Below are positions 2,341 to 64,000 of a stretch of DNA of 64,000 nt, piece by piece; position 1 is the stretch's first letter, and each line of letters starts with the position of its first letter. The notes beneath the pieces are model-generated. The model made no database searches. It was not told the DNA's origin and saw only the letters and a program-made list of their open reading frames with translations. The stretch lies in NCBI GenBank assembly GCA_965199495.1, contig CBDASK010000003.1, positions 1,664,001-1,728,000 on the forward strand, read 5' to 3'. The position numbers and the translations under genes are program-made. This DNA is from Abditibacterium sp. (GTDB lineage: Bacteria > Armatimonadota > Abditibacteriia > Abditibacteriales > Abditibacteriaceae).

Positions 2341-3561
2341 GTGCTTTCCGATGCGTCACAAAACTTTGCGCGGGCGCGCGCCCAAATCGAGAAGCGCGCG
2401 AAAATAGCGCGCGTTTTGACGCGGCCCGGCGTGGGCGGCGCGGCCAAGCACGTCGCGCTTTTGATGCGCGGATTAGAATCCGATTTCGAGGCGCGCTTGT
2501 ATTGCGGGCCGCCCGCCGCGCGCGAGGGCAATTATTTCGCCCTCCACGATTTGCCGATTACTCCGCACTGGATTGGCAGTCTGCGCCGCGACGCCGCGCC
2601 CGCGCGCGATGGACGCGCATTGCGCGATTTGGTGCGCCATTTTCGCGCGTTTTCCCCGCAGATTTGCGATACGCATTTGTCCAAAGCGGGCGTGCTGGGC
2701 CGCGTGGCTGCTCGCGTGGCGGGCGTGCCGATTCGGATTCATACCTTTCACGTCAACATCTTCGAGGGCTACGATTGGCGCCCGTTCGAGCGCCCGCTTT
2801 ACCTCGGCTTGGAACGTTTCGCCGCACGCGGCAGCGACCGATTGATCTGTTTATCGGAAGAATTATGCGCGCAATTACTGGATTTAGGCATCGGCGAACG
2901 AGGGCAATTTCGCGCGATAACGTTGGGCGTTGATCTGGCGCCATTTCAGGCCAATCAAGCGCAAATCGCTCAAGCGCGCGCCCAAATTCGCGCCGAACTC
3001 CAGCTCGCGCCCGACGCGCCAATCGTCGGCGTCGTCGCGCGGTTGGCACCGGTCAAAAGCATCAAAACCGCGCTCGAATGCGCGGCATTCATTGGCAAAA
3101 CGCGTCCCGATGTGCATTTCGCTTTCGTCGGCGAAGGCCCGTCATACGCGCGTTTGCAAGCGCAAGCGGCGCAATTGGGCGTGACGGATCGCGTTCATTT
3201 TCTGGGACTTCGCCGCGACATCGCGCGCCTCAACTGGAGTTTCGATTGCGTGTTACTGACTTCGCTGCAAGAGGGCACGCCGATTTCGATTATCGAAAGT
3301 CTGGCGGCTTCGCGTCCCGTCGTTGCGACTGATGTCGGCGGCGTCAAACGTTTGGTCGAACATGAAAAAACCGGATTGCTCATTCCGCCGCGAGACAGCC
3401 ACGCCGCCGCGCACGCCGTTTTGCGCGTTTTGAACGAACCGCAAATCGCCGCAGTCTGGAGCCAAAACGGGCGCGAAAGGGTGCAGCGCGAGTGGAGTTT
3501 GGAACACATGTTGGCGCAACATCGCGCTTTATATCGCGAAGTTTTGGAGGAGAAGGGTTAG
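2341..3561 (+). CDS. Glycosyltransferase family 4
   Basis: GGAAKH N-terminal motif, THLSKAGVLGR, VARLAPVK, EGTPISIIESLA (E-X7-E), VVATDVGG. Confidence 0.9.
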   Translation: MLSDASQNFARARAQIEKRAKIARVLTRPGVGGAAKHVALLMRGLESDFEARLYCGPPAAREGNYFALHDLPITPHWIGSLRRDAAPARDGRALRDLVRHFRAFSPQICDTHLSKAGVLGRVAARVAGVPIRIHTFHVNIFEGYDWRPFERPLYLGLERFAARGSDRLICLSEELCAQLLDLGIGERGQFRAITLGVDLAPFQANQAQIAQARAQIRAELQLAPDAPIVGVVARLAPVKSIKTALECAAFIGKTRPDVHFAFVGEGPSYARLQAQAAQLGVTDRVHFLGLRRDIARLNWSFDCVLLTSLQEGTPISIIESLAASRPVVATDVGGVKRLVEHEKTGLLIPPRDSHAAAHAVLRVLNEPQIAAVWSQNGRERVQREWSLEHMLAQHRALYREVLEEKG

Positions 3562-3622
3562 TTTTTGCGGATTAAGGCAGTTGCATTTGTAGGGTCAAAA
3601 CAAGTTTTGACCGCATCACACA

Positions 3623-4912
3623 ATGGCGACAACGCACGAGAAAACAACTTCCATGACAATCATCTTTTGCGCCGACCAATTACAACTCAACGCGCCCGAC
3701 CGCGCTTACGATGCCGAAGTCGAAGCCGCGCAAGCCGCCGGTTTAAATTATGAAATCGTCAATTTCGAGCGACTAACGCGCGACGAAAACGCCGAATTAG
3801 CGACGCGGCGCGTGCGGTCGCGCGAAACGCCCGAACTCGCGATTTATCGCGGTTGGATGTTGCGGCCTCAACATTACGCGGCGCTTTATGACGCGTTGCA
3901 AGCGCGCAATTTATTGTTGATTAACGCGTCCGACGCTTACCAGCATTGTCACTTTTTGCCGGAATCTTACGAAGAAATTAAAGAACATACGCCGCGCTCG
4001 ATTTGGTTGCCGTTATCCGATTGTTTGGACTCGGCGAAAATATCAGCGGCACTACAAACCTTTGGCGACAAACCGGTAATCGTCAAAGATTACGTCAATT
4101 CGCGCAAACACGAATGGGACGAAGCGTGCTTTATTCTCGACGCCTCGGACGGCGTGGCTGCATCGCGCGTCGTGACGCGATTTCTGGAGTTGCAGGGCAA
4201 CGATTTGAGCGGCGGCTTGGTATTTCGCGAGTTCGTCGCACTGAAAACCATCGGCGCGCACGCGCAAAGCGCGATGCCTTTGGCACGCGAGTTTCGATTA
4301 TTTTTCTTGAATGGCCGTCTGCTCCATCAGTCGAATTACTGGACGCAGGGCGATTATCGGGGCGATGCGCCGCCGCTCGCCATGTTTAGGAAAATCGCCC
4401 AAAATGTGCGCAGCCGATTTTTCACGATGGATGTCGCGCAACGAACCAACGGCGATTGGGTTATCGTCGAGCTGGGCGATGGCCAAGTCGCCGGTTTGCC
4501 GGACAAAAGCGAGGCGCCGGAGTTTTATCGTCAGCTCGCGGCGATGCCCAAATTTTATCTTTATTCCAATGGAGAACCGATGGGTTGGTCATCGCTCGAA
4601 ACTGCCGATCCGCCGATGGGATGCGTAACGGGCGTTTTTTATCCGAACCAGAATTACGCGCGCATCCGAGAGATTATTTTCAGAGGTCAGCGCGAATTGG
4701 GGCTTGATGCGACGGAAGCGAGCCGAAAAGCGAAATGGGAAGAGCTTTCCGTGTTAAACCTCACAGTTCGCGCGGAAGATGGCGCCGAATTTCAGCCCCT
4801 CGGCGGCATTTCAGTGGAAGACTACGCGGATGAATTGGAAGATAAAACCGCGCGGGAATTGAACGTTTTTGGTTTGTCGTCCGAAATTTTTCAACGTTAT
4901 TTTGGCAAATAA
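3623..4912 (+). CDS. ATP-grasp protein (R2K/DUF4343-like) with an extra ~120-aa C-terminal domain
   Basis: IYRGWML, IVKDYVNSRKH, EFRLFFLNG and FFTMDVA...WVIVELGDGQVAGL are ATP-grasp motifs. Start may be 3653. Confidence 0.75.
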   Translation: MATTHEKTTSMTIIFCADQLQLNAPDRAYDAEVEAAQAAGLNYEIVNFERLTRDENAELATRRVRSRETPELAIYRGWMLRPQHYAALYDALQARNLLLINASDAYQHCHFLPESYEEIKEHTPRSIWLPLSDCLDSAKISAALQTFGDKPVIVKDYVNSRKHEWDEACFILDASDGVAASRVVTRFLELQGNDLSGGLVFREFVALKTIGAHAQSAMPLAREFRLFFLNGRLLHQSNYWTQGDYRGDAPPLAMFRKIAQNVRSRFFTMDVAQRTNGDWVIVELGDGQVAGLPDKSEAPEFYRQLAAMPKFYLYSNGEPMGWSSLETADPPMGCVTGVFYPNQNYARIREIIFRGQRELGLDATEASRKAKWEELSVLNLTVRAEDGAEFQPLGGISVEDYADELEDKTARELNVFGLSSEIFQRYFGK

Positions 4913-4985
4913 TCGGCGAATTCGCTCTGAACGCAAGATTTCGATGGAAGCGGCGCGAGTTTCATTCTAAGCTCAAAGTCAGACT

Positions 4986-6062
4986 ATGAAAATTCCATTC
5001 GATTCCCCCACTTTCGCCGACGATTCCGCGCGCTGGCAAGCCGTGTTGGCGCGCGACGAACGCGCCGATGGCGCCTTTGTTTATGGCGTGGGTTCGACGC
5101 ATATTTATTGTCGCGCGTCGTGTCCGTCGCGGCGGCCACGGCGCGAGAACGCGCGCTTTTTCGAGACGCCCGAAAATGCAGAACAGGCTGGGTTTCGCGC
5201 GTGCAAACGCTGTCGGCCCGCGAATTTTGCCAACGATCAAATCGCGCGCGCGCGCCGGGCGTGCCGCATCATCGAAGCCAACGAAGGCGCGGCGATTTCG
5301 CTCGAAGAATTGGGAAAACGCGTGGGCACCAGCCCGTTTCATCTGCAACGCAGTTTCAAGCGCGCCATCGGCGTTTCGCCGCGCGAATACGCGCAGTCGC
5401 TGCGGCTGGGGCAACTCAAAGCGGCGTTGCAGCGCGGCGAAACAGTTTTAAACGCTGCGCTGGATGCGGGTTACAATTCAACGGGCAGTTTCTATCAAAA
5501 CGCGACGGCGCAACTGGGCATGACGCCCGCGACTTATGGGCGCGGCGGCAAAAACGCGCGCATCTGGTTTGGCATCGCGACGTGCAAATTGGATTTGATT
5601 TTGGTCGCGAAAACCGCAACTGGCGTTTGCTCGGTCGCGCTTGGCGATGATGAAAGCGCGCTCGAAACGGCGTTGCGCGCCGAATTTTTCGCTGCCACAA
5701 TCGAGCGCGATGACGCGCGATTAAACGAATATCTAAAAGCGGTAATCCAACTTTGTAAAGGTCAGCAACCGCATCAAGCGTTGCCACTCGATGTGCGCGC
5801 GACGGCGTTTCAATGGCGCGTCTGGCGCGAGTTGCGCGCGATTCCTCTCGGCCAAACGCGCACTTACGCCCAGGTCGCGCAATCGTTGGAAATGCCCACG
5901 GCCTCGCGCGCCGTCGCGCGCGCGTGCGCGACTAATTCGGTCGCGTTGGTTGTGCCGTGTCATCGCGTCGTGCGCAGCGACGGCAATTTGGCCGGTTATC
6001 GCTGGGGCATCGAACGCAAAGCGCGCTTATTGGAATTGGAGAAGATGAAGGAAGTTCTTTAA
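4986..6062 (+). CDS. ada: Bifunctional transcriptional activator / O6-methylguanine-DNA methyltransferase Ada
   Basis: Zn-binding YCRASCPSR...FRACKRC, AraC HTH, PCHRV active site. Confidence 0.95.
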   Translation: MKIPFDSPTFADDSARWQAVLARDERADGAFVYGVGSTHIYCRASCPSRRPRRENARFFETPENAEQAGFRACKRCRPANFANDQIARARRACRIIEANEGAAISLEELGKRVGTSPFHLQRSFKRAIGVSPREYAQSLRLGQLKAALQRGETVLNAALDAGYNSTGSFYQNATAQLGMTPATYGRGGKNARIWFGIATCKLDLILVAKTATGVCSVALGDDESALETALRAEFFAATIERDDARLNEYLKAVIQLCKGQQPHQALPLDVRATAFQWRVWRELRAIPLGQTRTYAQVAQSLEMPTASRAVARACATNSVALVVPCHRVVRSDGNLAGYRWGIERKARLLELEKMKEVL

Positions 6063-6181
6063 TCACAAAGGGCACAAATGGCACAAAAAATTCAAAAATA
6101 AAATATCGAACTTGCTTCATCAAAGCAGTGTTGCTCAAACCTTTTGTGCCCTTTGTGCCCTTTGTGATTTTTGTGGTTAAA
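6058..6181. repeat. Palindromic element family A (9-bp CACAAAnnn tandem arms), copy 1
   Basis: AATCACAAAGGGCACAAATGGCACAAAA ... TTTTGTGCCCTTTGTGCCCTTTGTGATT between convergent genes. The loop is homologous, in reverse orientation, to the copies at 32110 and 62759. Confidence 0.8.
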
Positions 6182-6199
6182 ATCCCCTACCCGATTGCT

Positions 6200-6535
6200 T
6201 CAAATTTGCGGACGCAATGTCGCGCGTTCCAGCGATTCGATTTCGCGTTTGACCGAGGCGTCGAAGAAGAACGGGCCGAGCGGCACAACCGAACTGACGA
6301 CGCCCAAAAAGATGCGCGTCCATTTCCAACGTGAAAGCACGCCGTTGAGAAAAACGAGGCCGACGTAAAGCAGAAAAAGTCCGCCGTGAATCGGGCCAAC
6401 GAGGCGCACGACTTCGGGTTGGTGCGCCAGATATTTGAGTGGCATTCCGACCAAAAGCAACACCAAAAACGAGGTGCCTTCAGCCAAGCCAAACGCATAA
6501 AGCGCGCGCAGAGCGGTTAATCGCGGAGTTTTCAT
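6200..6535 (-). CDS. DUF3817-like small membrane protein
   Basis: AEGTSFLVLLLVGMPLKY...GPIHGGLFLLYV...SVVPLGPF pattern. Confidence 0.8.
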   Translation of the reverse strand: MKTPRLTALRALYAFGLAEGTSFLVLLLVGMPLKYLAHQPEVVRLVGPIHGGLFLLYVGLVFLNGVLSRWKWTRIFLGVVSSVVPLGPFFFDASVKREIESLERATLRPQI

Positions 6536-6549
6536 GGGTATAATTGCAG

Positions 6550-6569
6550 CAGCCACGGCGCCGTGGCTG
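6550..6569. repeat. Perfect 20-bp palindrome made of two inverted CAGCCACG octamers
   Basis: CAGCCACGGCGCCGTGGCTG between divergent genes. Confidence 0.85.
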
Positions 6570-6651
6570 TTAGCAAGACGCCGGTATAAAATTTGGTTTA
6601 CTCGCGTCTGCTAATGAGCGCAAAACGCCAAAGCGTTAGGCGCGCTTCGCT

Positions 6652-7530
6652 ATGAATACTCACAAAATCTGGCTCGATACCGACATCGGCTCCGACATTG
6701 ACGACGCCCTCGCGCTCGCCTTTTTGCTCAACCGGCCTGACTGCGAACTGCTCGGCATTTCGACCGTTACCGAAATCGAAAATCAACGCGCGAAATTGGC
6801 GTCGGTTTTGTGTCGCATCGCCGATAAAGACGTGCCGATTTATCCGGGCACGCAGCATTCTCTCCTCGTCGAGGCGCCGCAAAAAACGGTGCCACAAGCC
6901 GTCGCTTTGCCGCAATTCACGCATGAAACGCGGTTTGCCGCGCCCGCTTTCGCCGCCATCGCCGCGATGCGCGCGGCGATTTACGCGCATCCCGGCGAAG
7001 TGATGTTGCTGGGCATCGGGCCGATGACGAACCTCGCGCTTTTATTCGCGATTGACCCGCAAATTCCGCGTCTGCTCAAACAATTGGTTTTGATGTGTGG
7101 GCACTTTATGGCGGGCGATAAACACTGCGAATGGAACGCTTTGAACGACCCGCATGCGACTGCGATGGTTTACGCGGCGCCGGTCGCGCGACACGTTTCG
7201 ATTGGATTGGATGTCACATTACAAGTGACGATGAAGCGCGCCGAATTCGAGGAGAAATTGCGCCAATCTCGCTATGGCGCGCCGATTCTCGCGATGGGCG
7301 GCGCGTGGTTTGAACAAAAAGACGAAGTGACTTTTCACGACCCGTTGGCCGCCGCCACGATTTTTGAGCCTGAAATTTGCGAGTATCAACGCGGACAAGT
7401 CGCCATCGAAAGCGCCGATGCGCAAAGTTTCGGCTTTACTGATTGGAAAGCGGGCGCTTCTCAGCCGCATCAAATTGCGACATCGGTTGACGCTGCGCAG
7501 TTTTTCCAACTCTACTTTGCGACCATTTAA
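6652..7530 (+). CDS. Nucleoside hydrolase (IU-NH family)
   Basis: LDTDIGSDIDDALAL, GIGPMTNLA, EWNALNDP, HDPLA. Confidence 0.92.
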   Translation: MNTHKIWLDTDIGSDIDDALALAFLLNRPDCELLGISTVTEIENQRAKLASVLCRIADKDVPIYPGTQHSLLVEAPQKTVPQAVALPQFTHETRFAAPAFAAIAAMRAAIYAHPGEVMLLGIGPMTNLALLFAIDPQIPRLLKQLVLMCGHFMAGDKHCEWNALNDPHATAMVYAAPVARHVSIGLDVTLQVTMKRAEFEEKLRQSRYGAPILAMGGAWFEQKDEVTFHDPLAAATIFEPEICEYQRGQVAIESADAQSFGFTDWKAGASQPHQIATSVDAAQFFQLYFATI

Positions 7531-7537
7531 TTTCACT

Positions 7538-8629
7538 ATGAACACACCCGTTTCCCCGCCCATTCCTTCGGGATTTGCCGCCGTTTTTCTCGATTTTGAA
7601 AATGTTTATTATTTCTTAAAAAACACTTTTTTCGATCCGCCAGAACTCAACGATCATATTTTGGAATTATTGCGCAATCTACGTCAGAAATTAAGCGCCG
7701 ATTATAGTTTAGATAGCATTGTATTAAACGCCTACGCCGATTTTGAACGCTTGGATTCGTCGCCGCAAAGCGCGCTTTATTTGTTGGGCGTGGATACCAA
7801 AAACGTGTTGGGCACCGATCACAAAAACGCCGCCGATATGCGGCTGTGCATTGACGTTTTGGAAGTGCTTTACACGCGCGCCGAAATTTCGACGTTTGTT
7901 TTGGTGGCGGGCGACCGTGATTATATTCCGGTCATCCAACATTTGCGGCGCCAAGCGCGGCGCGTTCTGGGCGTCGGTTTTCGCGAAAGCGTTTCGGGCG
8001 ATTTGTTGCAAAATCTGGGCGAAAATCAATTTTTGGATGCGCGCGAATTGCTCAATCCCGCCACGCTCGAACGCTTGGAAACGCGGCGCCAAGAGCAGCA
8101 AAAATTGCACGACGAACGCGAAAAACGTTTCGCTGACCAAGCCCGCGAAATCGGCGAACGCGTGCGCAATGCGCAAAATCAAGCGGCGCCCGTGGCTGAT
8201 AAAAACAGCGTCAAACCCGTCGCGACAAATCAGCAAAGTTCGGGAGTAAATAAAGTTCAGAACGATTCGTGGTCGGGAGGCTATGAAGAGAAAGCCCTGC
8301 GCGCCGCGCCTCTGCCCGCGCTTCCGCCGCAGTTCGCCGAAGTCTCGCGCATTCACGACAAAAACGCGTTGGATTGCCTTAATATTATTTTGCAGCGCAT
8401 TCATCAGCTCGAACAAAACTATGGCACACGCGAATTGTGGCTCGGCCCGTTTTTGCGCCAACTCACCGACGAAATGCCGATGTTGGCCGAATTCGAGCGC
8501 CGCAATGCGCTCGACGATCTGGCGCGCGCCGGAGCGACTTTGGTCGAAAAACGCGAGGGCGATCCGCATCCATTTTCGGTTTTGCTGGTGAATTATCAGC
8601 ATCCCGACGTGTGGGAGTTGAACCCGTGA
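7538..8629 (+). CDS. NYN (LabA/DUF88, PIN-like) domain protein with C-terminal extension
   Basis: VFLDFENV, KNAADMRLCID and LVAGDRDYIPVIQHLR acidic motifs. Start ATG 7538 avoids overlap with the upstream gene. Confidence 0.85.
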   Translation: MNTPVSPPIPSGFAAVFLDFENVYYFLKNTFFDPPELNDHILELLRNLRQKLSADYSLDSIVLNAYADFERLDSSPQSALYLLGVDTKNVLGTDHKNAADMRLCIDVLEVLYTRAEISTFVLVAGDRDYIPVIQHLRRQARRVLGVGFRESVSGDLLQNLGENQFLDARELLNPATLERLETRRQEQQKLHDEREKRFADQAREIGERVRNAQNQAAPVADKNSVKPVATNQQSSGVNKVQNDSWSGGYEEKALRAAPLPALPPQFAEVSRIHDKNALDCLNIILQRIHQLEQNYGTRELWLGPFLRQLTDEMPMLAEFERRNALDDLARAGATLVEKREGDPHPFSVLLVNYQHPDVWELNP

Positions 8630-8646
8630 ACGAACAGCGTCGCGGC

Positions 8647-9252
8647 TCAGAAACTTCCGCGACGCTGTTCGATTTCCATCGCGTTAATGCTGCCTTCGTG
8701 CAGAATAAAACAAAATCGAACGCGATTGGTTTGCGCTTCTCGCAACCGGTCGCGCATCTTTTGCAAATCTTTCACAACGGCGCTCGCTTCTTCCAGCGCA
8801 GTGAGATTGGCGCGCAAATAGTGAATTAAGGCAGTTGCGATTTCCAAACCTGCTTCTGGTGCGTGCCAAGTCATCGCTTTCCCACTTTGCTCGTCGGTGA
8901 AGCCGAACGAAGTGAACGCCTCGATTCCCAATTGTTCGCAGAGTTGATCGAGGCCAACGCAATTGCGCGAGAGCGGCGCGCTCCAAACCCAACTGCCGGG
9001 CACTTTCGCTTCAAAATAGAGGACGAGTTTAGGTTTGGATATGACGGAAATGCAGAACACCAGCAGCAAATAGAGAAAGAACCCGCCAACCCACGAGGCC
9101 AAACCAATCGGCGCATTGGAATAGATAACGTTGTAAGACAACCAGAAAAAGACGACGCCAACGACGAAAAAGAACGGCAGAAAGCGAGCGATTCCTCGTT
9201 TTAAACCTTGCCAGTAGGCTTGCGGATAACCGCTGTATTTGCCTTTTCGCAT
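8647..9252 (-). CDS. Hypothetical membrane protein (2 TM plus soluble domain)
   Basis: 201-aa ORF with two N-terminal hydrophobic segments; TAAAAT 8 nt before the ATG. Confidence 0.65.
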   Translation of the reverse strand: MRKGKYSGYPQAYWQGLKRGIARFLPFFFVVGVVFFWLSYNVIYSNAPIGLASWVGGFFLYLLLVFCISVISKPKLVLYFEAKVPGSWVWSAPLSRNCVGLDQLCEQLGIEAFTSFGFTDEQSGKAMTWHAPEAGLEIATALIHYLRANLTALEEASAVVKDLQKMRDRLREAQTNRVRFCFILHEGSINAMEIEQRRGSF

Positions 9253-9293
9253 AACTACTAATTTTAGTAGGTTTTAGTAATTGTTAGTAGTTA

Positions 9294-9522
9294 ACCCCGT
9301 GTGCAAGTTGTTTTTAGCTCCTCGCCTTGTCATTCTGAGCGCGGGCGCCCTCTGGGCAGCAGGAACGAACGCAGTCGAAGAATCCATAATGTTGAACTCG
9401 CGACGAACGTCAAACTCCGTTACAACCTGTGGATTCTTCGACTGCGTTCGTTCCTGCTGCCCAGAGGGCGCCCGCGCTCAGAATGACAAGGCGAGGAGCT
9501 AAAAACAACTTGCACACGGGGT
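9294..9522. mobile_element. MITE-like palindromic element carrying a GTCATTCTGAGCG...GAAGAATCC REP-like doublet, with 6-bp TSD TAGTTA
   Basis: Perfect 95-bp inverted arms 9292-9386 and 9430-9524 with a 43-nt loop; TAGTTA at 9288-9293 and 9523-9528. Confidence 0.8.
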
Positions 9523-9546
9523 TAGTTAGCCGCGCCGATTAAATTT

Positions 9547-10350
9547 TCAGGCGCCGTGGTGCGCGCGCAGCAGCGAAATCATTAAGCCAGAACACTCGTT
9601 TTCTCCGGCGTGATGATAAGCCACGGCCAAGTTGCGCAGCACGCGGGCGACGACATCGCGCGCCGTGGCTGCATCGGACATCTCGGCGGGCGCGGCCTTT
9701 TGCAGCGTGGCGACTTCGCGCGCCGACAACACTCTGCCACCGTTGAACGGATCGAAAACGGTGCGACGACGACTGTCGCGCGCCAGAAAATGACCGGGAA
9801 AATTGCAGCCTTCGATATGTAAGCCGACACGCGCGCCGACCAGCATGAAAATGCACGCCAACGTGATTGGCAAACCGCCGCCGTTTTCCAAAACGTGGGT
9901 CAAATTCGAGTTGAGCGGATTGTAATAATGGTCTGCGCTGGCACCGCGCAGGCCGTTTTGATCGAACAAAAACGTCGCCAGTGCGACCGAATCGGGGCAC
10001 GATTCCAACGTCAAAAACGTGTCTGCCAAATCGTCTAACATTGCGGCGGCACGCGCGGCATCGCTTTCGCCGCGTTGCCAGCGGCCCAGCGCGCGCAGAC
10101 TGCTTTCCAGATAAAGTGCTTCGTCGGTTTCGTCTTGCAATTGCGCCCATTGCGCGCGTAGAGAGGACTCGTCGTGCGCGGAGAAAATCTCGGTTAAAAT
10201 CGCGTGTTGCGCGGGCGAAACCGGCAATTGGTCGGTTTGGATAATCGGCCAAATCTCGGCGCCCAAATCGCGAATTTTGACGGTGACGCGCTCGCGCACA
10301 ACAGGCGACGGGTCGTCGAGCAAGCGCAAAAGAAAAGGGAGATCGGTCAT
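9547..10350 (-). CDS. SirB1 / transglutaminase-like (Transglut_core2) family protein
   Basis: LLRLLDDPS, YYNPLNSNL..VL..GGLPITLA, GCNFPGHFL, FDPFNGG, RVLRNL. Confidence 0.85.
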   Translation of the reverse strand: MTDLPFLLRLLDDPSPVVRERVTVKIRDLGAEIWPIIQTDQLPVSPAQHAILTEIFSAHDESSLRAQWAQLQDETDEALYLESSLRALGRWQRGESDAARAAAMLDDLADTFLTLESCPDSVALATFLFDQNGLRGASADHYYNPLNSNLTHVLENGGGLPITLACIFMLVGARVGLHIEGCNFPGHFLARDSRRRTVFDPFNGGRVLSAREVATLQKAAPAEMSDAATARDVVARVLRNLAVAYHHAGENECSGLMISLLRAHHGA

Positions 10351-10400
10351 GAGCGACAAAGCAAATCGCGTCAAGTTTAAACGATTTTTGCGACCTGAAT

Positions 10401-12224: not shown

Positions 12225-12238
12225 AGGAGAGATAAAAT

Positions 12239-13573: not shown

Positions 13574-13685
13574 GGGAAAACAAAGTGTGCGCGAACGCGC
13601 CACAAACTTCACGCGCGAGGCGCAACAAATCACGGCGAGCGACAAGAAACGGAACGACAAACCGCGAGTTTTTCGCGTTTAAATC

Positions 13686-13729: not shown

Positions 13730-13741
13730 CGCAAGCGTCGT

Positions 13742-55465: not shown

Positions 55466-55878
55466 TGCCCGAACTGCAATGGGACGAATTCGATTTCTTT
55501 TACTGTTTGGAAGTCGAGCCGCAATTCTATGACGAATACAAATTGCGTTATATTTACAAAGTCGAGAAAGAAGGATTGGCTTTGACTGTCGTTGTTCGTC
55601 CGTTGGATGGTGCTATTTTTCTTTCGTTGGGCCAGCGGGGAAGCGAACTTTCTCTCGTTGAATTCGCGGTTTTGGTTCGCGGCAAAATTCGTTATATCCG
55701 CGACAAACGCGGCGAATATTTAGAATTCGACGATTGTCTGCTCATGCCAACAACGATGTCACACTATCGGTTGATGCGTCCTCCAGCAAAACAGGCGGAT
55801 GCGATGGACGCGTTTCAACCCGGTTGGACTGTTCAACTTTCCATCAAACCGCAAATCCAAATTCGCTATCTTGATTAG
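55465..55878 (+). CDS. Hypothetical protein coupled to nadB
   Basis: TAATG overlap; 137 aa; WDEFDFFYCLEVEP N-terminus. Confidence 0.65.
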   Translation: MPELQWDEFDFFYCLEVEPQFYDEYKLRYIYKVEKEGLALTVVVRPLDGAIFLSLGQRGSELSLVEFAVLVRGKIRYIRDKRGEYLEFDDCLLMPTTMSHYRLMRPPAKQADAMDAFQPGWTVQLSIKPQIQIRYLD

Positions 55879-55894
55879 ATTTCCGCGCCAAAAG

Positions 55895-55931
55895 AAAAAG
55901 GCAAAAGTGCACGATGCACTTTTGCCTTTTT
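55895..55931. terminator. Bidirectional intrinsic terminator between convergent genes
   Basis: AAAAAGGCAAAAGTGCA-CGA-TGCACTTTTGCCTTTTT. Confidence 0.8.
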
Positions 55932-55945
55932 TGCTTTTGTGAAAA

Positions 55946-57136
55946 TTAATTCTCGCGTTCGTTCAACTTCGCCGTCAATTCTTCGACCTGTTTTTCCAAG
56001 CGCCGCAGTTGTTTCGCCATATCGGGCAGTTTGCGCGAAGCGGCGTGAACGCGCAGATATTCGCGTTGCGGCAACGAGGGCGAACCCATCACGAATTCGC
56101 CGGGCGGAATGTCGGCCATAATGCCCGCTTTGGCGCCCAAAATCGCGCCTTTGCCGATGCGCACATGATCGCGCAAACCGACTTGACCGGCCATGCTCAC
56201 GTTATCTTCGATAATCACCGACCCGCTTAAACCGACTTGGCCGCAAATCACGCAATTTTTGCCGACTTGAACGTTGTGCGCGATTTGCGTCAGGTTGTCC
56301 ACTTTGGTGCCTTCGCCCACGCGCGTGGCTCCCATTGTGGCGCGGTCAATGCACACGTTGGCGCCGATTTCCACGTCGTCTTCGATAATGACGGTGCCGA
56401 TTTGCGGGACTTTCTGGTGGCGCTCGCCGTCGAAAACATAGCCGAAACCGTCGCTGCCCAAAACGCTGCCCGAATGAATGCGCACGCGTTTGCCGATGTG
56501 AACCTGACGATAAATCACGACCGACGGATAAATAATCGTGCCCCTGCCGATTTGCGCGCCGTCGCCGACGGTGACGTGCGGATACAAAACCGCGCCATCG
56601 TCAATGCGCGCGTGATGGCCGACGTAACAGCCCTCGCGAATGGTGACATTTTTGCCGATGATCGCGTCCGATTCGATGACGGCGGTGCGATGCACGCCTT
56701 TTTCCGGCAGCGCGGCGGGCTGCATCCATTCCAAAACTTTGGCGAACGCCAGACGCGGATTGCCCGCGAAAACAATCGGTTTTTCGTGGGTTTGGCGGTC
56801 TTTGGCGCGCTTGTTTTCGGCGCTTTTGCGTTGCAAACGGCGCGCTTCTTCGAGAGTTTCGCGCAATGCTTCGGGCGCGATGATAGCCGCCGCGTTCGAT
56901 TGGAGCGCCTCAACAATCAGCTTGTCCGAATCTATGAAAGAAATCGCGCCGGGCGCGGCGCTTTCGAGACCAGCCACGCCGGTGATGGGCGTGGATTCGT
57001 CGCCGACCCATTGCGCGCCCAAAAGCTGCGCGATTTCGCCCACGGTCGTAGTGCGAATCTCATTAGCGCGGATTTCTCCCGTGCGATTCTCGCCGTTGCG
57101 AGTTGGGCCGTTCGAGGCCACATTAGCGGTCGCCAT
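55946..57136 (-). CDS. lpxD: UDP-3-O-(3-hydroxyacyl)glucosamine N-acyltransferase
   Basis: NPRLAFA, hexapeptide repeats, GSDGFGY, DDVEIGAN.CIDR, KVDNLTQIAHNV. Confidence 0.96.
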   Translation of the reverse strand: MATANVASNGPTRNGENRTGEIRANEIRTTTVGEIAQLLGAQWVGDESTPITGVAGLESAAPGAISFIDSDKLIVEALQSNAAAIIAPEALRETLEEARRLQRKSAENKRAKDRQTHEKPIVFAGNPRLAFAKVLEWMQPAALPEKGVHRTAVIESDAIIGKNVTIREGCYVGHHARIDDGAVLYPHVTVGDGAQIGRGTIIYPSVVIYRQVHIGKRVRIHSGSVLGSDGFGYVFDGERHQKVPQIGTVIIEDDVEIGANVCIDRATMGATRVGEGTKVDNLTQIAHNVQVGKNCVICGQVGLSGSVIIEDNVSMAGQVGLRDHVRIGKGAILGAKAGIMADIPPGEFVMGSPSLPQREYLRVHAASRKLPDMAKQLRRLEKQVEELTAKLNEREN

Positions 57137-57416
57137 AAAAATTTGACTCCTGAATTGCGTTGTTCCCTATGCGCTCCAATAGTTATAGAGTGCGCCCAGA
57201 AAAAATAACGGTAACGATGAATTGCGGTGATGTTCAGGAAAGCGGCGCGCAAAAAAATGCACGTTCGTTGACAGTTCCGCCCTATTTTACCACGTTAAAG
57301 AAACTCTCACCCGTTTCAAGTTGCGCGATAAGTTCATCGCGTTCACAACAATTGCTTAATACAAGTTTTTTAACGGCTCCCTGAACCAAAATAGGCGCGC
57401 TTGACAATCGCGGTTT

Positions 57417-58778
57417 TTAGCCCGCTGAAATCGCGAACAATTTCTGCAACGCCAACGCCGTGCGGTCGGGCGCGTCGTCTTCATCCGACAACTGCGCGCC
57501 CCAACTCAGCGCCAATTGCTGCGCCCACTGTTTCGCATCGCGGCGCGCCTGAGCGCGCAATTGCGCGATATTTTCGCTTTTGGTTCGAGCCGTCTGGCTT
57601 AACGAACGATTGTCGCGAGCAATCAACAAATCACCATCGTTTCTGTCCGACGCAGACGCGTTACCGCGCGCGTTTGTTGGAAAAGAACTGTTGTCGTTCA
57701 CGCTCAAATTGGTGTCAGCGAGGCGCGTTGGTGGGAGCAACAAACGCAAAATTTGAGTGTCGCTGGCGCCGGGCGCGTTGCTGTTCAAGCGGTTTTCGAC
57801 GAGTTGGCGCAGTTCTAAGCGCGCGTAATAACGCTCCGATTCGCGCTTGGTCGCGGCGGCGTCCAGCGCAGCGAGGCCTTCGCGGCGCAATCGCGCGGGC
57901 AGTTCTTCGAAAGCCGCGCGCAATCGCGCGTTTTGCTGCGCGGTTTGGCGCGCCCAAACCTCGTTGAGCCGTTTTTCGATGACTTCGATTTTGGCGGCGG
58001 CGGCGGCTTTTTGCGCGACCGGCACGCTGAGTTGCTCTAACAATTGCAAACGCAAGTTAGAAAGTTCGAGCGCAGTTTCGGGCGAAACCGGAGTCAGAGA
58101 AATCGCCTCGACCGCGCCGCGCGTGGCCGCTCGAATGCGGCCTTCCAGCGCGCGCCGCGCCAAATCCGATTCGGCGACTTCCAAATCGTTCTGGCGGGTG
58201 CGCAGGTCGGACAGAAAATCGTCGAGCGTGGCGCGACTGGCCGCAATCGCCGGGCGCTGATTCAGCGTCGCCGTCACGCTACGCGCCGCGCGCGTTGGCA
58301 AAGCGTTGATGTCGGGAATCGCCAATTCGCCTGCCACATTTTTAGTGGGATTAACCGGCGCCAACGACGGCACGCGAACGCCAATTTGGCGCGCATCGGT
58401 GGGCGCAATCGTTTCGCGTTGCAGCGCGTCGGCGAGCAGCCACGCCGCATGGCGACGCGCCAGAGCATCAATATCAATGCGAATCGCGCGCGGCCCGGCT
58501 TTCGCCGTGGCTGCTCCGGCGGGCGCGGAGTAACGATTAATCCACGCGGTCACAGTTTTGGCGTTGATGCCCGCGACCGCCCGTTCCAGCGAACGCGAGC
58601 GCGCCGCCGCCGCTTTGTCGTTGGCCGCGATTTCCACTGTCGTCGGCGGTTGCGGAATTGGCGGTATGACTTGCGGCAATGCCGAACAACCGCCTAAAAA
58701 TCCCGCGCCCAAAAGCACGCCCGCCCACGCGATGCGCGATGAGCGCAGTGCGTTGGAGCGAGCGGGAATTTTGGGCAT
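57417..58778 (-). CDS. Hypothetical lipoprotein with coiled-coil regions
   Basis: Lipobox-like LGGC; Ala/Arg-rich helices; lies between the OmpH-like gene and lpxD. Confidence 0.65.
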   Translation of the reverse strand: MPKIPARSNALRSSRIAWAGVLLGAGFLGGCSALPQVIPPIPQPPTTVEIAANDKAAAARSRSLERAVAGINAKTVTAWINRYSAPAGAATAKAGPRAIRIDIDALARRHAAWLLADALQRETIAPTDARQIGVRVPSLAPVNPTKNVAGELAIPDINALPTRAARSVTATLNQRPAIAASRATLDDFLSDLRTRQNDLEVAESDLARRALEGRIRAATRGAVEAISLTPVSPETALELSNLRLQLLEQLSVPVAQKAAAAAKIEVIEKRLNEVWARQTAQQNARLRAAFEELPARLRREGLAALDAAATKRESERYYARLELRQLVENRLNSNAPGASDTQILRLLLPPTRLADTNLSVNDNSSFPTNARGNASASDRNDGDLLIARDNRSLSQTARTKSENIAQLRAQARRDAKQWAQQLALSWGAQLSDEDDAPDRTALALQKLFAISAG

Positions 58779-58794
58779 TGGGTTGAGGGCGAGC

Positions 58795-58869
58795 CAACAG
58801 AACCCGGAGCGGAAGCGACGCGGCTAATTCAGCACTCAAGCCGCGTCGCTTCCGCTCCGGGTTCTGTTG
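58795..58869. repeat. Palindromic element (AGAACCCGGAGCGGAAGCGAC type)
   Basis: Perfect 31-bp arms 58795-58825 and 58839-58869 with a 13-nt loop. Confidence 0.82.
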
Positions 58870-58875
58870 CGCGAT

Positions 58876-59625
58876 TTAATTCAAGCGCTTCAAAACTTCA
58901 TCGGTGATGTCGATATTATCCGCCGACCACACCAACGCTTTTTTGCGAATCACGGCATTTAATTTCTTTTCGGTCGCGACTTGAATGACGACCGAGTTCG
59001 CTTTGTCGGTGTAGCTTTTGTCCACGTCGTCCTGCTGCTTGCGGATCGCTTCGAGCAGATTTTGCGAGAGAGCCTGCAAACCGGGGCCATTTTTCGAGGC
59101 CATATCCTGCAACTCTTTGAGGCGGGTTTCATCGGCGGGCGTGCGGTTGGCTTTGCCGATGAGACCGAGAAATTCGGCTTTGCGGTCGGTACCGGTTTTG
59201 ACCAAGCCATCGAGTTGCGTCTGTTGCGCCCCAGAGAGCGTGGGCAAAACGATCACGCTATCGAAGGCTTTGCCTTCGGTGTCGTTGAGATACTCGCGCG
59301 CCGGGATTTTGGAATCCAAACCCTGCGCGCGCTTGTCGAGATCGCCGATGGCGGTTTGATAGAGTTTGTAACCGTCGGCGAGTTTTTCTTCATCAACAAC
59401 GCCAACAGTGGACGCGGGTTGCGCGTGCGCCACGCGCGCGGCGGGCACAAAAGCCAGCGTCGAGGCCAACCCAAAAGCGGCCAACAAGGGAAACGCGCGC
59501 AAACGCGAAGCAAGGGAAAAGGAACGAAAATTGGTTTTCAAGGGGAAACTCCAGAAGAAACTCGCGCGCGTGCAAAAGCGCGCAGCAGGCAAATATTTTA
59601 TCTGACGCTCGCGATTAGCGCCCAA
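58876..59625 (-). CDS. OmpH/Skp-like periplasmic chaperone (start uncertain)
   Basis: Signal peptide ending AHA; VGVVD..K; coiled coil; VA.EKKL..V; IDITDEVLKRLN. Confidence 0.8.
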   Translation of the reverse strand: MGANRERQIKYLPAARFCTRASFFWSFPLKTNFRSFSLASRLRAFPLLAAFGLASTLAFVPAARVAHAQPASTVGVVDEEKLADGYKLYQTAIGDLDKRAQGLDSKIPAREYLNDTEGKAFDSVIVLPTLSGAQQTQLDGLVKTGTDRKAEFLGLIGKANRTPADETRLKELQDMASKNGPGLQALSQNLLEAIRKQQDDVDKSYTDKANSVVIQVATEKKLNAVIRKKALVWSADNIDITDEVLKRLN

Positions 59626-59740
59626 AGCAGTGCGGGCGAGTCGTCAGAAGCCAAAAGAAACGGCGTTGCCAGAGGGCAACGCCGGAAAAATTAGACGCCG
59701 TTTCAAAAGCAAGGTTTTGCTTTGAAAGCAATAAAGCTCT

Positions 59741-59771
59741 GCGCCGTGGCTGTATGTTGCAGCCACGGCGC
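59741..59771. terminator. Hairpin formed by two inverted CAGCCACG octamers just downstream of moeB
   Basis: GCGCCGTGGCTG-TATGTTG-CAGCCACGGCGC, 6 nt past the moeB stop. Confidence 0.6.
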
Positions 59772-59777
59772 CCGAAC

Positions 59778-60929
59778 TTAATAACGCGGCACGCTTTCGT
59801 CCACGTTTTTCGACCACGCATCAATGCCGCCCGCCATGTTCTTCAATTTCTTGAAGCCCAACTTTTGCAGACCGGCAATGGCGCGCGCCGAGCTGTCGCC
59901 GACGTGACAGAACACCACGTAATCCTGCGCCGAATCCAACTCTTTGACGCGGCCCAGCAAATCGGCGTAGGGAATGTGAACCGAATTGGGCAAAACCGTG
60001 ATTTGCACCTCTTCGTCGCTGCGCACATCCAAAAACTTGGCGTCGCTTTCGTCCATGAACGCCTTGGCCTGTTTCGCCGAAATCTGCTCGATAGATTTCG
60101 GATCGGCGCCCAACGATTCCTCGGAAATGCCGCACAAAAACCGATAATCGGCGGCGGGCAGCAAATTCGTAATCGTCGGATGCTCACCGCAAATCGGACA
60201 ATCCGGGTCTTTGCGGATTTTCAGCGTGCGGAAAGTCATCGCGAGGGCGTCATAAATCAGCAAGCGCCCGATGAGCGGATTGCCCACGCCCATCAAAATT
60301 TTGAGCGCCTCGGTCGCCTGAATCGTGCCGACGATGCCGGGCAAAATGCCCAGCACGCCGCCTTCGGCGCACGACGGCACCATGCCGGGGGGCGGCGGTT
60401 CGGGATACAGACAGCGATAGCACGGGCCGTTGGGGTCGGCGAAAACGGTGGATTGGCCGTCGAAACGGAAAATCGAGCCGTAAACATTGAGCGTTTTGGT
60501 CAAAACGCAGGCGTCGTTGACGATGTAGCGCGTCTCGAAATTGTCGGTGCCGTCCACGACGATATCGTGGCTCGAAACCAATTCCATGACGTTTTCGGTC
60601 GAAACGGCGTCTTGAATCGCGTTGACTTTGACGAACGGATTGATTTCGGCGATGCGGTTTTTGGCCGATTCGACTTTGGGAATTCCGACGCTGGAAGAGT
60701 CGTGCAGAATTTGGCGTTGCAGGTTGGAAACGTCCACGACATCGGGGTCGAGAATGGTGATTTCGCCGACGCCCGAAGCGGCCAAATAAAGACCGGCGGG
60801 CGAGCCTAAACCGCCCGCTCCGACCATCAAAAGTTTGGACGCCTTGAGCTTTTCCTGACCATCAACGCCGACTTCCGGCATAATCAAGTGGCGCCCATAG
60901 CGCATGATTTCGGGGTTAGTCAGCTTCAT
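59778..60929 (-). CDS. moeB: MoeB/ThiF adenylyltransferase with C-terminal rhodanese domain (MoeZ type)
   Basis: RYGRH, GAGGLG, SNLQRQ, PCYRC, CAEGGVLG, CPIC, rhodanese FCHVG. Confidence 0.92.
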   Translation of the reverse strand: MKLTNPEIMRYGRHLIMPEVGVDGQEKLKASKLLMVGAGGLGSPAGLYLAASGVGEITILDPDVVDVSNLQRQILHDSSSVGIPKVESAKNRIAEINPFVKVNAIQDAVSTENVMELVSSHDIVVDGTDNFETRYIVNDACVLTKTLNVYGSIFRFDGQSTVFADPNGPCYRCLYPEPPPPGMVPSCAEGGVLGILPGIVGTIQATEALKILMGVGNPLIGRLLIYDALAMTFRTLKIRKDPDCPICGEHPTITNLLPAADYRFLCGISEESLGADPKSIEQISAKQAKAFMDESDAKFLDVRSDEEVQITVLPNSVHIPYADLLGRVKELDSAQDYVVFCHVGDSSARAIAGLQKLGFKKLKNMAGGIDAWSKNVDESVPRY

Positions 60930-61222
60930 AATGTTTCTTGAACGGATTCGATATTTTGCATCCATTGCTCGCAACTTTTAGGGACGTGCGCCGATTGGAA
61001 GGAGGCGTTCAGCCCCGCTTGAAGCGAAGCGCGTTTCAAAACGGACGTTACAAAATATCTCTTCGTGAATCGGTGAGTTTAACTTCTAAACTCACGCACT
61101 GGCTAATTCGGTGGATAGAGCCAGTCAGGCTTGCCAAACGCGCGCCCGCCCGTTCGCGTTTCCCTTATTTTCCGATTTCGCCCGCATTTCCCACCCGCGA
61201 CATAGGAAAACCAATTTTTCCG

Positions 61223-62746
61223 ATGGCCTCCGCTTCTACTCGCCCCACCAAGCAGCCACGCGCACAGGCTGGCGCCAACGTTTCGCCCAACGAAACGCGC
61301 GTCGCGTTGATTTTTCTGGCGTTGGCGCTGGTTACAGGCGGCGCGGTGCGTTTGTATTCCCTCGTCCAAATGCCGTTTGCCTTTGGCGATGGCGGTATGT
61401 TTTGGGTCGCGACGCGCGCGATTGCGGGCGCCAATTTCGCCTTGCCAGCGACGTTAGCTTATCCGGCGCCCGATGCCAATTTGCCGTTTTGCTATCCGCC
61501 GATGGGCTTTTACGCGGCGGCGGTTTTGGCAAAAGTGGGCGTGCCGATGGCGCAGATTTTTCGATGGCTCCCGTGGGCGTGGAGCATGGCAACGATTTGG
61601 GCGTTCTGGCGCTTGGCTCGCACATTTTGGAAGAACGAGCCGGACGGCGAATGGGCGGCGGGCGCGGCGACTTTGTGTTGGGCGCTGTTGCCGTGGAGCT
61701 TTTTTTGGATGGTTATGGGCGGCGGCCTGACGCGCGCGCTGGGACTTGGGTGCGCGTTTCTGGCGATTGACGCCGCGATCAAATTATGGCGCGACGGCGA
61801 AACCCGACAATGGATTTGGTTGACGATTTTTTTGGCGATGACGTTGGCTTCGCACCTCGAACGCGCGCGCTTCGCCGTCGTGGCTGTTGGTCTGATCTGG
61901 CTGTTTTACGGAATATCTTCGCGCGGCGCGCTTCAATTGGCGGGTGCCTATTTCGGCGCGGCGCTCTTCACCGCGCCGTGGTGGGGCTTGTGTCTGATGC
62001 GCTTTGGACTCGCGCCGTTCAGGGCTGCGGCGAGTAGCGGCGGCAGCGGTTGGAGCGAATCGTCGGGCGCCTCAGCTTTGGTCAAAGCGGTTTTATTCAC
62101 CATCAACGGCGAAGCGATTTTGCCGTTCGCGCATATTTTGGGCGCGTTGGGTTTGATTTGGTGTTTGTCGCGCCGCCAATATTTTTTGCCGGTCTGGGCG
62201 CTGGCAATTTTGCTCATCGAAGTGCGTTCGGGTCGCATCTTTATCATCGCGCCGCTTGCGCTGGGCGTCGGCATCTTGCTCGCCAACGCGCCGCGCGCGC
62301 GCTTTATTACGATGGGCTTGTTGACTTTCTGGCTCTGTTTTTTGTCAGTGGAAGTGCAATTAAACCTCATCGGCCTGACGCGCGGCGATTTGGCGGCGAT
62401 TGATTGGGCAAAAACAAACGCGCCTGCCGATGCAAAATTTTTGGTGATCCCGACCAACGATTGGGCGATGGACGAAACCGCCGAATGGTTTCCGGCGCTG
62501 GCGAACCGTGCGAGCGTGACGACGGTGCAGGGCGCCGAATGGTTACCCGATGGCGAGTTTCGACGGCGCATCGAGCGCCATGAAAAATTGCGTGGTGCCC
62601 AAAGCTGGCCAGCAGCCACGGCGACTGGATTGCCGCCTTTCGATTGGGTTTGGCGTCCCGACAACGCACCGCAATGGGAGCCGGACGCACGCTGGCGAAA
62701 AGTTTGGTCGAACGGCAATAACGCGATTTGGAAACGCGTGGAATAA
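61223..62746 (+). CDS. Polytopic membrane protein, probable GT-C (PMT/ArnT-like) glycosyltransferase
   Basis: GDGGMF after TM1, PFCYPP.GFY, GGGLTRALG, EWFPAL, TTVQGAEW; many TMs. Confidence 0.6.
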   Translation: MASASTRPTKQPRAQAGANVSPNETRVALIFLALALVTGGAVRLYSLVQMPFAFGDGGMFWVATRAIAGANFALPATLAYPAPDANLPFCYPPMGFYAAAVLAKVGVPMAQIFRWLPWAWSMATIWAFWRLARTFWKNEPDGEWAAGAATLCWALLPWSFFWMVMGGGLTRALGLGCAFLAIDAAIKLWRDGETRQWIWLTIFLAMTLASHLERARFAVVAVGLIWLFYGISSRGALQLAGAYFGAALFTAPWWGLCLMRFGLAPFRAAASSGGSGWSESSGASALVKAVLFTINGEAILPFAHILGALGLIWCLSRRQYFLPVWALAILLIEVRSGRIFIIAPLALGVGILLANAPRARFITMGLLTFWLCFLSVEVQLNLIGLTRGDLAAIDWAKTNAPADAKFLVIPTNDWAMDETAEWFPALANRASVTTVQGAEWLPDGEFRRRIERHEKLRGAQSWPAATATGLPPFDWVWRPDNAPQWEPDARWRKVWSNGNNAIWKRVE

Positions 62747-62758
62747 GCGAACGAATTT

Positions 62759-62899
62759 ATTTCCCACAAAAACGCAAAAATCACAAAAGGCACAAAAAAT
62801 TCAAAAGGTTTTGAAGAACAATTTTCCGATAAAGAAAGTTCGACCAGCTATTTTTGAATTTTTTGTGCCTTTTGTGATTTTTGCGTTTTTGTGGGAAAT
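62759..62899. repeat. Palindromic element family A, copy 3
   Basis: Perfect 48-bp arms 62759-62806 and 62852-62899 between convergent genes. Confidence 0.88.
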
Positions 62900-62918
62900 T
62901 GAACTTCTTGAAATGGAT

Positions 62919-64000
62919 TTAAGCCTTCGCCTTTTCCGCGACTTTGCCGCTATCGTGGCCCGAACCGCGCAGACGAAACGCCAGAAAAAACGCGCCCATC
63001 ATGATAATGCCGCCCGCGATAAACGGCGCGCCCGCCGCGATGGTGCCGAACAAAACGCCGCCCAAGTTCGGGCCAACGATGCGGCCCAGACTTTGGGTGG
63101 ATTGATAAATGCCCAGCAGTTCGCCGCGCTCGTTTTCGGGCGCGTATTGCGAAACCAGCGAAGTCAAAACCGGCGTCGAAATGCCGTTGCCCAGCGTCAA
63201 AATGCCGCACGCCAGATATTGGCCCCAGATCACACCCGGCAAAATGCCCTCGACAATCGCGACGCTGACCAAGCCACATGCCATGATTAATGTGCCCGCC
63301 AGCACAAGTGGCACTTCGCCAAACATTTTTTGCAGTGGCCGAATTAACCCGCCCTGCACAATCAGCGACAAAATGCCGATGACGCCGAAAATGTAGCCGA
63401 TCAAACGCGCCGATTCGGGGCGCACGATGAGTTTTTCGACTTCGCGCCAGCTCAAACCGGGCGGCGGCGCGGCGCCTTTAAAAGTGAAATCGCCGCCCAA
63501 CGATTTGGGATAAGGCTGCGTCGCATCGTCGGCACCCGTCGGCGTGGCTGCTTCGCCCGTTGGCGGCATCGGCGCGGTTTCGCGGTCGGCGGAGTGTAAG
63601 GTTTGCGCGCGCACGGCGGCGGCTTGCGGGTTACGGCGAATCTCGCTTTGCACCAAAGGCCGCGTGTAATCCTTGAGAATAAACAGCGCGTAAGTGCCCT
63701 GAATCGTGGCAAACGCCGCCGTTGCCAGAAAACCGATGAGAATAGCTTCGTTGAGATGCGGAATTTTCAAGGCGTGCGCAAATCCCGTGATGAAAGAACG
63801 CTTATTGTTTTTGTTTTCCTCGGCATTTTTGCGCGTGGCTTCGGGCAAAGTCTCGCGCAAGAAATTCAGCGCCAACGCCCAGTTGAGCAAAGCCAGTCCG
63901 CCCGAAAACGCGCCCAAACCCAGATTGCCGCCCCACACGCCGGGCAGATGCGTCAACGCCGAACCGATGAGCGGCCCGATGGCGAAGGCGATGCCGAACG
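62919..64000 (-). CDS. MFS transporter (TetA/DHA1-like), 5' end outside the window
   Basis: FGIAFAIGPLIG at the window edge, LRETL, VQGGLIRPL.K.FGE, ERGELLG...SLGRIVGP. Confidence 0.88.
   Translation of the reverse strand, partial: FGIAFAIGPLIGSALTHLPGVWGGNLGLGAFSGGLALLNWALALNFLRETLPEATRKNAEENKNNKRSFITGFAHALKIPHLNEAILIGFLATAAFATIQGTYALFILKDYTRPLVQSEIRRNPQAAAVRAQTLHSADRETAPMPPTGEAATPTGADDATQPYPKSLGGDFTFKGAAPPPGLSWREVEKLIVRPESARLIGYIFGVIGILSLIVQGGLIRPLQKMFGEVPLVLAGTLIMACGLVSVAIVEGILPGVIWGQYLACGILTLGNGISTPVLTSLVSQYAPENERGELLGIYQSTQSLGRIVGPNLGGVLFGTIAAGAPFIAGGIIMMGAFFLAFRLRGSGHDSGKVAEKAKA

Follow-up and report, generated by a model that had tools for sequence, protein, structure and literature searches.

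The stretch of DNA analysed here (the window) comprises 64,000 nucleotides of the 4.72-Mb chromosome, contig C3, of an Abditibacterium genome (G000; three contigs, 95% complete), and scattered over it is one short word whose core reads CAGCCACG or, on the opposite strand, CGTGGCTG. There are 45 exact copies, 20 as CAGCCACG and 25 as CGTGGCTG on the plus strand, whereas 100 dinucleotide shuffles of the window contained 2.26 on average and at most 7; 38 of the 45 lie inside called genes. An earlier sequence-only reading of this DNA had counted about 45 copies (about 25 and 20 on the two strands), had judged them far too many for chance and had pointed out a 20-bp palindrome and a hairpin; the count proved exact, every coordinate was confirmed, and both structures are present as described. 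The same reading took the word for an octamer, which falls short: conservation of the flanks lengthens it to ~13 bp with the consensus WGCAGCCACGSCG, an asymmetric sequence and no palindrome, and 14 of the 45 window copies fit the whole 13-mer. Core positions 2–7 tolerate no change, and enriched variants occur at the first and last positions. An Rfam search of the window returned no match.

At 0.70 cores per kb, the window is representative of a pattern that extends over the whole chromosome. The whole genome contains 3,091 cores, compared with 237 and 436 expected under Markov models of order 3 and 4, respectively, and the core is the highest-ranked 8-mer of the genome under order-3, -4 and -5 models alike. 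On the chromosome, 3,083 cores (0.65 per kb) divide into 1,558 and 1,525 per strand. The palindrome in the window lies between divergent genes and is therefore no terminator. An 8,080-bp core-free interval in the window belongs to the chromosome's 20 largest gaps, and at 24407–27997 the window encodes a HATPase–NB-ARC–TPR protein of ~1,200 residues.

Table 1. Copies of the word and related features in the window
Feature	Position	Strand	Remarks
Whole set, 45 cores CAGCCACG (consensus WGCAGCCACGSCG)	2703..63550	both	
20 plus-strand cores	3396..62620	+	starts 3396, 6550, 11738, 17570, 25650, 28033, 30721, 36812, 39585, 40702, 44428, 51553, 52320, 52875, 55203, 56971, 58437, 59760, 61253, 62613
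25 minus-strand cores	2703..63550	-	starts 2703, 4153, 6562, 8191, 9664, 11829, 17086, 25894, 28102, 29809, 30258, 31582, 32894, 35271, 37333, 38355, 41453, 43601, 44766, 53893, 54094, 58506, 59745, 61879, 63543
Perfect 20-bp palindrome, two inverted cores fused	6550..6569	one copy per strand	between divergent genes
Inverted pair, 12-bp arms, 7-nt loop	59741..59771		directly downstream of the stop of a ThiF/rhodanese (moeB-like) gene (59778, minus strand)
Inverted pair, cores 69 bp apart	28033..28109		intergenic space
Core-free gap, 8,080 bp	17578..25649		over ATP synthase genes

Genes were called with our own hexamer model (3,944 genes, 84% coding), and all figures for placement inside and outside genes are approximate. 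Within genes, the word is kept against codon preference. Coding copies number 2,831, against ~266 in synonymous shuffles, and each of the six frames shows a 3–24-fold excess; dicodon usage, which the sequence-only reading had named as able to undo its proposal, as had confinement to a single frame, thus fails to explain the counts. GTG-GCT makes up 18% of Val-Ala pairs, although GCT accounts for 10% of Ala codons, in line with the earlier remark that the word often uses Ala codons other than those this genome prefers. Some of the encoded tripeptides are raised as well (AAT 1.48-fold, VAA 1.53-fold, SHG, SHA and SHV 1.6–1.8-fold), others hardly so (QPR 1.02, AWL 1.08); uptake signal sequences (USS) and DNA uptake sequences (DUS) are likewise reported to raise the tripeptides they encode (PMC2817400). 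Between genes, spaces of up to 400 bp hold 160 copies where 8–10 are expected. A stem-loop around each site is ruled out, since the flanks in G000 show no covariation and fold with the same energy as mixed flanks.

No replichore polarity was found: the G-rich strand carries 1,592 of the 3,083 chromosomal copies (51.6%; p=0.07), which agrees with the lack of strand polarity seen earlier in the window and leaves no leading-strand bias; the replichores were set from cumulative GC skew, and as this skew is weak (~0.01) their ends are approximate. Copies on the same strand exclude each other over ~1–1.5 kb, whereas copies on opposite strands do not. Adjacent copies switch orientation in 1,940 of 3,082 cases, and at distances of 60–500 bp there are 134 same-strand and 423 opposite-strand pairs. 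Relative to expectation, the density of same-strand pairs is 0.1–0.35 up to 500 bp, 0.54 at 500–750 bp and 0.87 at 1–1.5 kb, reaching 1.0 by 2 kb; that of opposite-strand pairs stays near 1 (0.7–1.3 over bins) except for an excess below 30 bp. None of 212 control 8-mers falls below 0.98, and the word is the most repelled among 1,542 frequent 8-mers. The window itself contains 3 same-strand and 12 opposite-strand pairs closer than 700 bp. The distance to the next same-strand copy also grows with match quality, its median being 1,776 bp for stronger and 1,181 bp for weaker matches to the 13-mer. The exclusion holds across oppositely transcribed genes (17 same-strand versus 46 opposite-strand pairs) and hence tracks the DNA strand, which rules out a signal at the mRNA level. 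A general purge of direct repeats is ruled out too, as direct repeats outnumber inverted ones among ordinary 10–13-bp repeats at 60–500 bp. Since the spacing keeps to the DNA strand and does not stem from a general purge of direct repeats, whatever a copy brings, be it benefit or drive, apparently saturates separately on each strand.

The same behaviour was found in a set of genuine uptake sequences. For this control, we used 48 non-overlapping Pasteurellaceae loci out of 79 listed, after dropping overlapping, short and non-Pasteurellaceae loci, and added 400 kb from a single complete genome. Isolated USS at 60–500 bp form 56 same-strand and 104 opposite-strand pairs (734 sites, p ~1e-4), and the one Pasteurellaceae genome alone gives 22 versus 40; for 120 control 7-mers, the same-strand fraction averages 0.58, with a minimum of 0.45. 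The exclusion ranges over ~0.2–0.5 kb for USS, compared with ~1–1.5 kb here. The USS on each strand are reportedly evenly spaced (Karlin et al. 1996), and part of the spacing finding may thus be in print. Uptake sequences are also described as more evenly spread than random (PMC2817400). Our literature search, which did not include the literal word, found no paper on same-strand exclusion or on such words in this lineage. What is new here is the same-strand exclusion together with the family's dialects, with the reservation that part of the USS spacing may already have been described.

The word fills the resident chromosome and not incoming DNA. The plasmid-like contig C1 carries 2 cores in 24.7 kb and the phage-like contig C2 carries 6 in 64.6 kb (0.08–0.09 per kb, near background), where the labels rest on a reading of the translated genes. 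On the chromosome, genes in the least native decile of codon use have 0.35 cores per kb versus 0.72–0.82 in deciles 3–10, only 6 of 105 genes longer than 3 kb lack a core, and five 10-kb windows below 50% GC average 1.4 cores versus 6.5, so that the word is depleted in acquired, AT-rich islands. Viral contigs are poor in it as well: at least 119 loci were listed, and among those no shorter than 8 kb only one had a density of 0.4 per kb or above. One viral contig, L397, has seven cores in 15.6 kb, a density near that of the host and alone among the long viral loci listed. A prophage-like region at C3:4.21–4.29 Mb has about half the usual core density and includes, at 4284143, a predicted tRNA whose anticodon corresponds to a stop codon.

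Comparison with sisters indicates how the copies came about. In codon alignments with seven motif-negative sisters, the word is found unchanged at 4 of the 179 orthologous sites that align without gaps, and 18 more sites adjoin gaps; since it is absent from nearly all ungapped sites, the word arose by substitution (point changes) and not by insertion. In each of these seven sisters, word sites have a lower amino-acid identity than their genes have on average. The motif-positive relative G011 keeps 25 of 39 sites (75% four-fold identity).

Related genomes have words of their own. The class comprises 31 genomes, 27 of them in this family, and the relatives were sampled at 9–400 kb each. The core CAGCCACG is enriched only in G000, G004 and G011, yet 11 of the 27 family genomes have a word, ranging from related 13–20-mers to an unrelated A-tract word and to palindromes of 8–26 bp. 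In G004, the same core is embedded in a 20-bp consensus, and close inverted pairs account for 132 of the 290 copies sampled; G001, of the same genus, has 2,791 copies of an A-tract word that bears no relation to the core, and in both genomes such pairs (dyads) are frequent and intergenic. Six further genomes (G014, G018, G020, G022, G024 and G045) contain 2,695–4,371 palindromes RAGTACTY, extended to 14–16 bp in G020 and G014, and G017 has a 26-bp palindrome, the 22-letter centre of which has 914 matches on one strand and 918 on the other. The words of G014, G017 and G020 are thus palindromic, and relatives' words, too, occur inside genes. CAGCCACG is shared by three genomes and AGTAC by seven. 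No word was seen in 42–160-kb samples of 12 family genomes, although a weak word could escape samples of this size; G005, G008, G021 and G044 fall in neither group. RAGTACTY is nearly absent in genera g1 and g5 (0–45 copies versus 60–418 for controls) and occurs in thousands in two sister genera. In G005, a 5-kb stretch (C98:2073-6903) holds five of the nine RAGTACTY sites of that genome, possibly as DNA from a motif-positive genus or through a binning error.

We propose, with a probability of roughly 0.55, that the word is an uptake-sequence-like tag of the species' own DNA whose effect saturates per strand. It would be read during natural transformation as a species-specific mark of self. 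DNA bearing it would be taken up or recombined more often, and mutations creating it would spread until a nearby copy, within a fragment of ~1 kb, already served that fragment on the strand being judged. As only same-strand copies compete, there would be at least one step in which the word is read on one strand only or the entering strand is judged by itself; for a duplex reader content with one site, neighbours of either orientation would compete. Where copies form inverted pairs, or palindromes as in the dialects of relatives, one place would supply both strands.

Several observations weigh against this proposal. As many as 92% of the copies (2,831 of 3,091) lie within genes, compared with reported shares of 65% for USS and 35% for DUS (PMC1939737), and the density outside called genes is 0.31 per kb versus 0.70 inside. 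Close pairs that are wholly intergenic number 16 on the chromosome, 5 of them between convergent genes, so that terminator-like pairs are rare and the enrichment of inverted pairs after stop codons anticipated from the window does not hold. The dialects have no single common core, whereas all DUS dialects are reported to share a CTG core (PMC3630211). G004 keeps 29 of 141 sites, no clear excess, and motif-negative relatives possess the competence genes and the tip pilin described below. Moreover, uptake in H. influenzae is described as independent of USS orientation (PMC1939737), and efficient recognition of DUS is reported to need duplex DNA, with only a weak single-strand preference (PMC12061091). 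The uptake analogy first drawn from the window thus stands as to the depletion in foreign DNA, the dialects and the USS-like strand spacing, and it fails as to enrichment between genes and in terminator pairs in G000. Because this one defining feature (an excess outside genes, with terminator dyads) is missing from G000, we would class the word as uptake-sequence-like and not as a DUS or USS proper.

G000 encodes ComEC, ComEA and DprA as well as PilD, and it has a type IV pilus locus; co-occurrence of the word with comEC, comEA and pilin genes was one of the checks suggested by the sequence-only reading. Such genes are widespread, however (ComEC in 40 of 41 genomes, ComEA in 39 of 41, PilD in 38 of 41, DprA in 5 of 5 searched), and being found in motif-negative relatives too, they permit but do not predict a word. 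The motif-negative G012 has a ComEA frame of 62 residues (C1:2735017) and a ComEC frame of 558 residues (C1:1341240), both shorter than those of its sisters and perhaps a sign of decayed competence. The pilus locus of G000 (C3:861–881 kb) ends with two pilin-like genes of ~1,300 residues, a tandem duplication of a tip pilin (C3:872853-880963, L301) found in G000, G004 and G011; the first copy contains one motif and is less native in its codon use, whereas six motifs lie in the second. A model of residues 40–760 of the second tip pilin (predicted local distance difference test score, 82) aligns weakly with PilA2 (Z 5.9), with ComZ (Z 4.9, root-mean-square deviation 3.8 over 195 residues, the longest alignment) and with ice-binding solenoids. 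All structural Z values stay below 8, Foldseek and a Protein Data Bank (PDB) sequence search gave no match, and Atlas leads were PilX_N and DUF4900. ComZ is a DNA-binding tip pilin whose summary description in PMC6561018 does not include sequence specificity. In four of five motif-positive genomes, at least one tip-pilin copy has a Lys+Arg content of at least 9.2%, compared with 7.0–7.8% in 10 of 10 negative genomes, with G014 as the exception. A prediction of this contrast made beforehand held in G011 (9.0), G017 (9.9), G024 (~9.6, two pieces), G007 (7.5) and G003 (~7.6, two pieces), whereas G001 and G018 yielded no copy. Several positive genomes have other pilins that are likewise somewhat more basic, and the positives as a whole represent only two or three lineages. 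The basic tip pilin as receptor is therefore a lead and not proof; judged from the model, a ComZ-like tip pilin would be a better lead than the DUF1559 proteins suggested earlier. The ComP profile PF16732 matched none of five genomes, but no control genome gave a match either.

The main alternative, possible though rather doubtful, is an intracellular maintenance signal read by direction or strand and needed on each strand every ~1–3 kb, whether as an unpolarised Chi-like resection stop at two-ended breaks, as a priming or loading site or as a strand mark used in repair. If selection acted on the distance to the next site in the correct orientation, same-strand spacing would follow directly; the exclusion acts at the DNA level across gene borders, core density is highest in genes and not in spacers, and the GC skew is weak, all of which would suit such a signal. 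The absence of a word from 12 sampled relatives, in turn, makes the signal dispensable, and real USS show the same spacing. Chi, a strand-read, asymmetric and species-specific site, is 5–8 nt long, unlike words of 13–26 bp that turn over within a genus. RecC was found in none of five genomes tested (the E. coli control was positive), and the AddA profile matches in G000 only a PcrA/UvrD-type frame (794 residues). Nor do AddA-like genes track the word: in g5, three genomes have neither such a gene nor a word, and both are present in G001. Loss of AddA as the cause, predicted beforehand, held in G017, G013 and G015 and failed in G016, G019 and G023 (no AddA, no word) and in G001 (AddA-like gene and word); the sample of G021 was too small. 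G000 also encodes a 1,421-residue protein (C3:4111365-4115630) whose N-terminal domain is a PD-(D/E)XK nuclease and whose distribution over the phylum is patchy. This nuclease-helicase was rejected as a candidate: it occurs in 4 of 24 other family genomes and does not track the word.

We consider it unlikely that the word is a methylation signal resembling the highly iterated palindrome HIP1, marked by a methyltransferase (on one strand if asymmetric) so that the mark aids transformation or repair. The relatives' palindromes with an AGTACT centre are very evenly spaced (coefficient of variation of gaps 0.54 in G020), and G000, G004 and G011 each have 6–7 matches to N6/N4-methyltransferases. 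Such matches occur in all five genomes searched, with and without a word (C5 enzymes lay outside the search), including the motif-negative G009 and G012 (2 and 5), and no specific enzyme is tied to the word. Furthermore, the word of G000 is no palindrome, and the conserved 13, 20 and 26 bp exceed the usual length of methyltransferase sites. HIP1 itself is reported to be methylated and quasi-periodic and to raise transformation (PMC13756078, 10.1101/2024.09.10.611283).

Functionless relics of a repetitive extragenic palindromic (REP), miniature inverted-repeat transposable element (MITE) or NTS-type repeat, or of gene conversion from one, with close direct repeats lost by deletion, are very unlikely and were already disfavoured. 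The paired copies and 20-bp consensus of G004 would fit, as would sites that adjoin alignment gaps (13 of 33 in G004). In G000, however, copies are single, lie in genes, lack a conserved flanking hairpin and arise without gaps; 92% in genes, flanks without covariation and an even spread are not features of REP or NTS, and the excess of ordinary direct repeats shows that these are not purged. The REP-like and Ssn-linked repeats of the genome also differ in sequence from the word. The chromosome has GTAG-type REP-like hairpins in two variants of ~70–90 copies each and a CRISPR-like repeat of 131 copies, the latter ruled out as source of the word by its different sequence. A small stand-alone, Ssn-like GIY-YIG gene (C3:3607888-3608100, L124) lies between two long inverted hairpin repeats, relatives of which number 40–80 in the genome. 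NTS are described as repeats read on a single strand that act on transforming DNA with Ssn nucleases (PMC11893778); the Ssn-like nuclease was rejected as a candidate, as it has its own, different hairpin repeat and no such nuclease was found in motif-positive G017. Finally, that codon-pair or amino-acid preferences (Val-Ala, Ala-Ala-Thr) produced the word as a side effect is next to impossible, for although two frames contain 2,057 of the 2,831 coding copies, the synonymous shuffles are exceeded in every frame, short intergenic spaces are enriched and sister genomes do without the word.

Sequence-specific recognition of self in DNA uptake is, according to PMC7811141, established only in Neisseriaceae and Pasteurellaceae. 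Within one family, we find words gained repeatedly and a series from asymmetric word to inverted pair to palindrome, and the 11 genomes with a word and 12 without one in their samples offer natural contrasts for finding the reader. The same-strand exclusion, shared with real USS, makes the question of drive versus function testable: two same-strand sites should be redundant, two opposite-strand sites additive. Tentatively, this may be a third bacterial family with uptake-type tags, whose reader could be re-tuned within a genus to unrelated words of 8–26 bp while judging each strand alone; asymmetric, DUS-like words and iterated, HIP1-like palindromes might then answer a single per-strand demand in two ways, and classical USS, too, might be shaped by this hidden strand-specific step.

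Among known systems, NTS would share with the word the single-strand reading and the action on transforming DNA, but are described as clustered hairpins near a nuclease gene, whereas the word is evenly spread. HIP1 of cyanobacteria is, as reported, likewise highly iterated, evenly spread, largely in genes and linked to transformation, and has counterparts in the palindromic dialects of relatives; it is a phylum-wide palindromic octamer, whereas the word of G000 is asymmetric, longer and species-specific. Chi of RecBCD/AddAB, whose reading by strand is cited in PMC1939737, resembles the word in asymmetry, but the word is denser, longer and without leading-strand bias, and RecC and AddA were not found in G000. 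The tip receptor ComZ/PilA2 of Thermus thermophilus has the pilin start and beta-rich body seen in the tip pilin here, which is more than twice as long, aligns at Z <8 and has no Foldseek match. DUS of Neisseriaceae, described as eight ComP-read dialects, also differ by lineage, with a spacing that matches the 1.5 kb seen here (PMC2397512); the intergenic inverted pairs of G004 and G001 and overlapping dyads as in Simonsiella are further likenesses. This family's words, by contrast, lack a shared core, span 8–26 bp, include full palindromes and are patchy within one genus, and ComP had no match (control silent). From the USS of Pasteurellaceae, the word differs in exclusion range, in its share within genes (92% versus 65%), in having few terminator pairs and in showing no sequence likeness. 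Nevertheless, as far as USS have been described, both occur at ~0.7 per kb, are asymmetric and equally frequent on the two strands, originate through point mutations, are scarce in new DNA and make their encoded tripeptides more frequent, and in both we measured the mutual exclusion of copies on the same strand.

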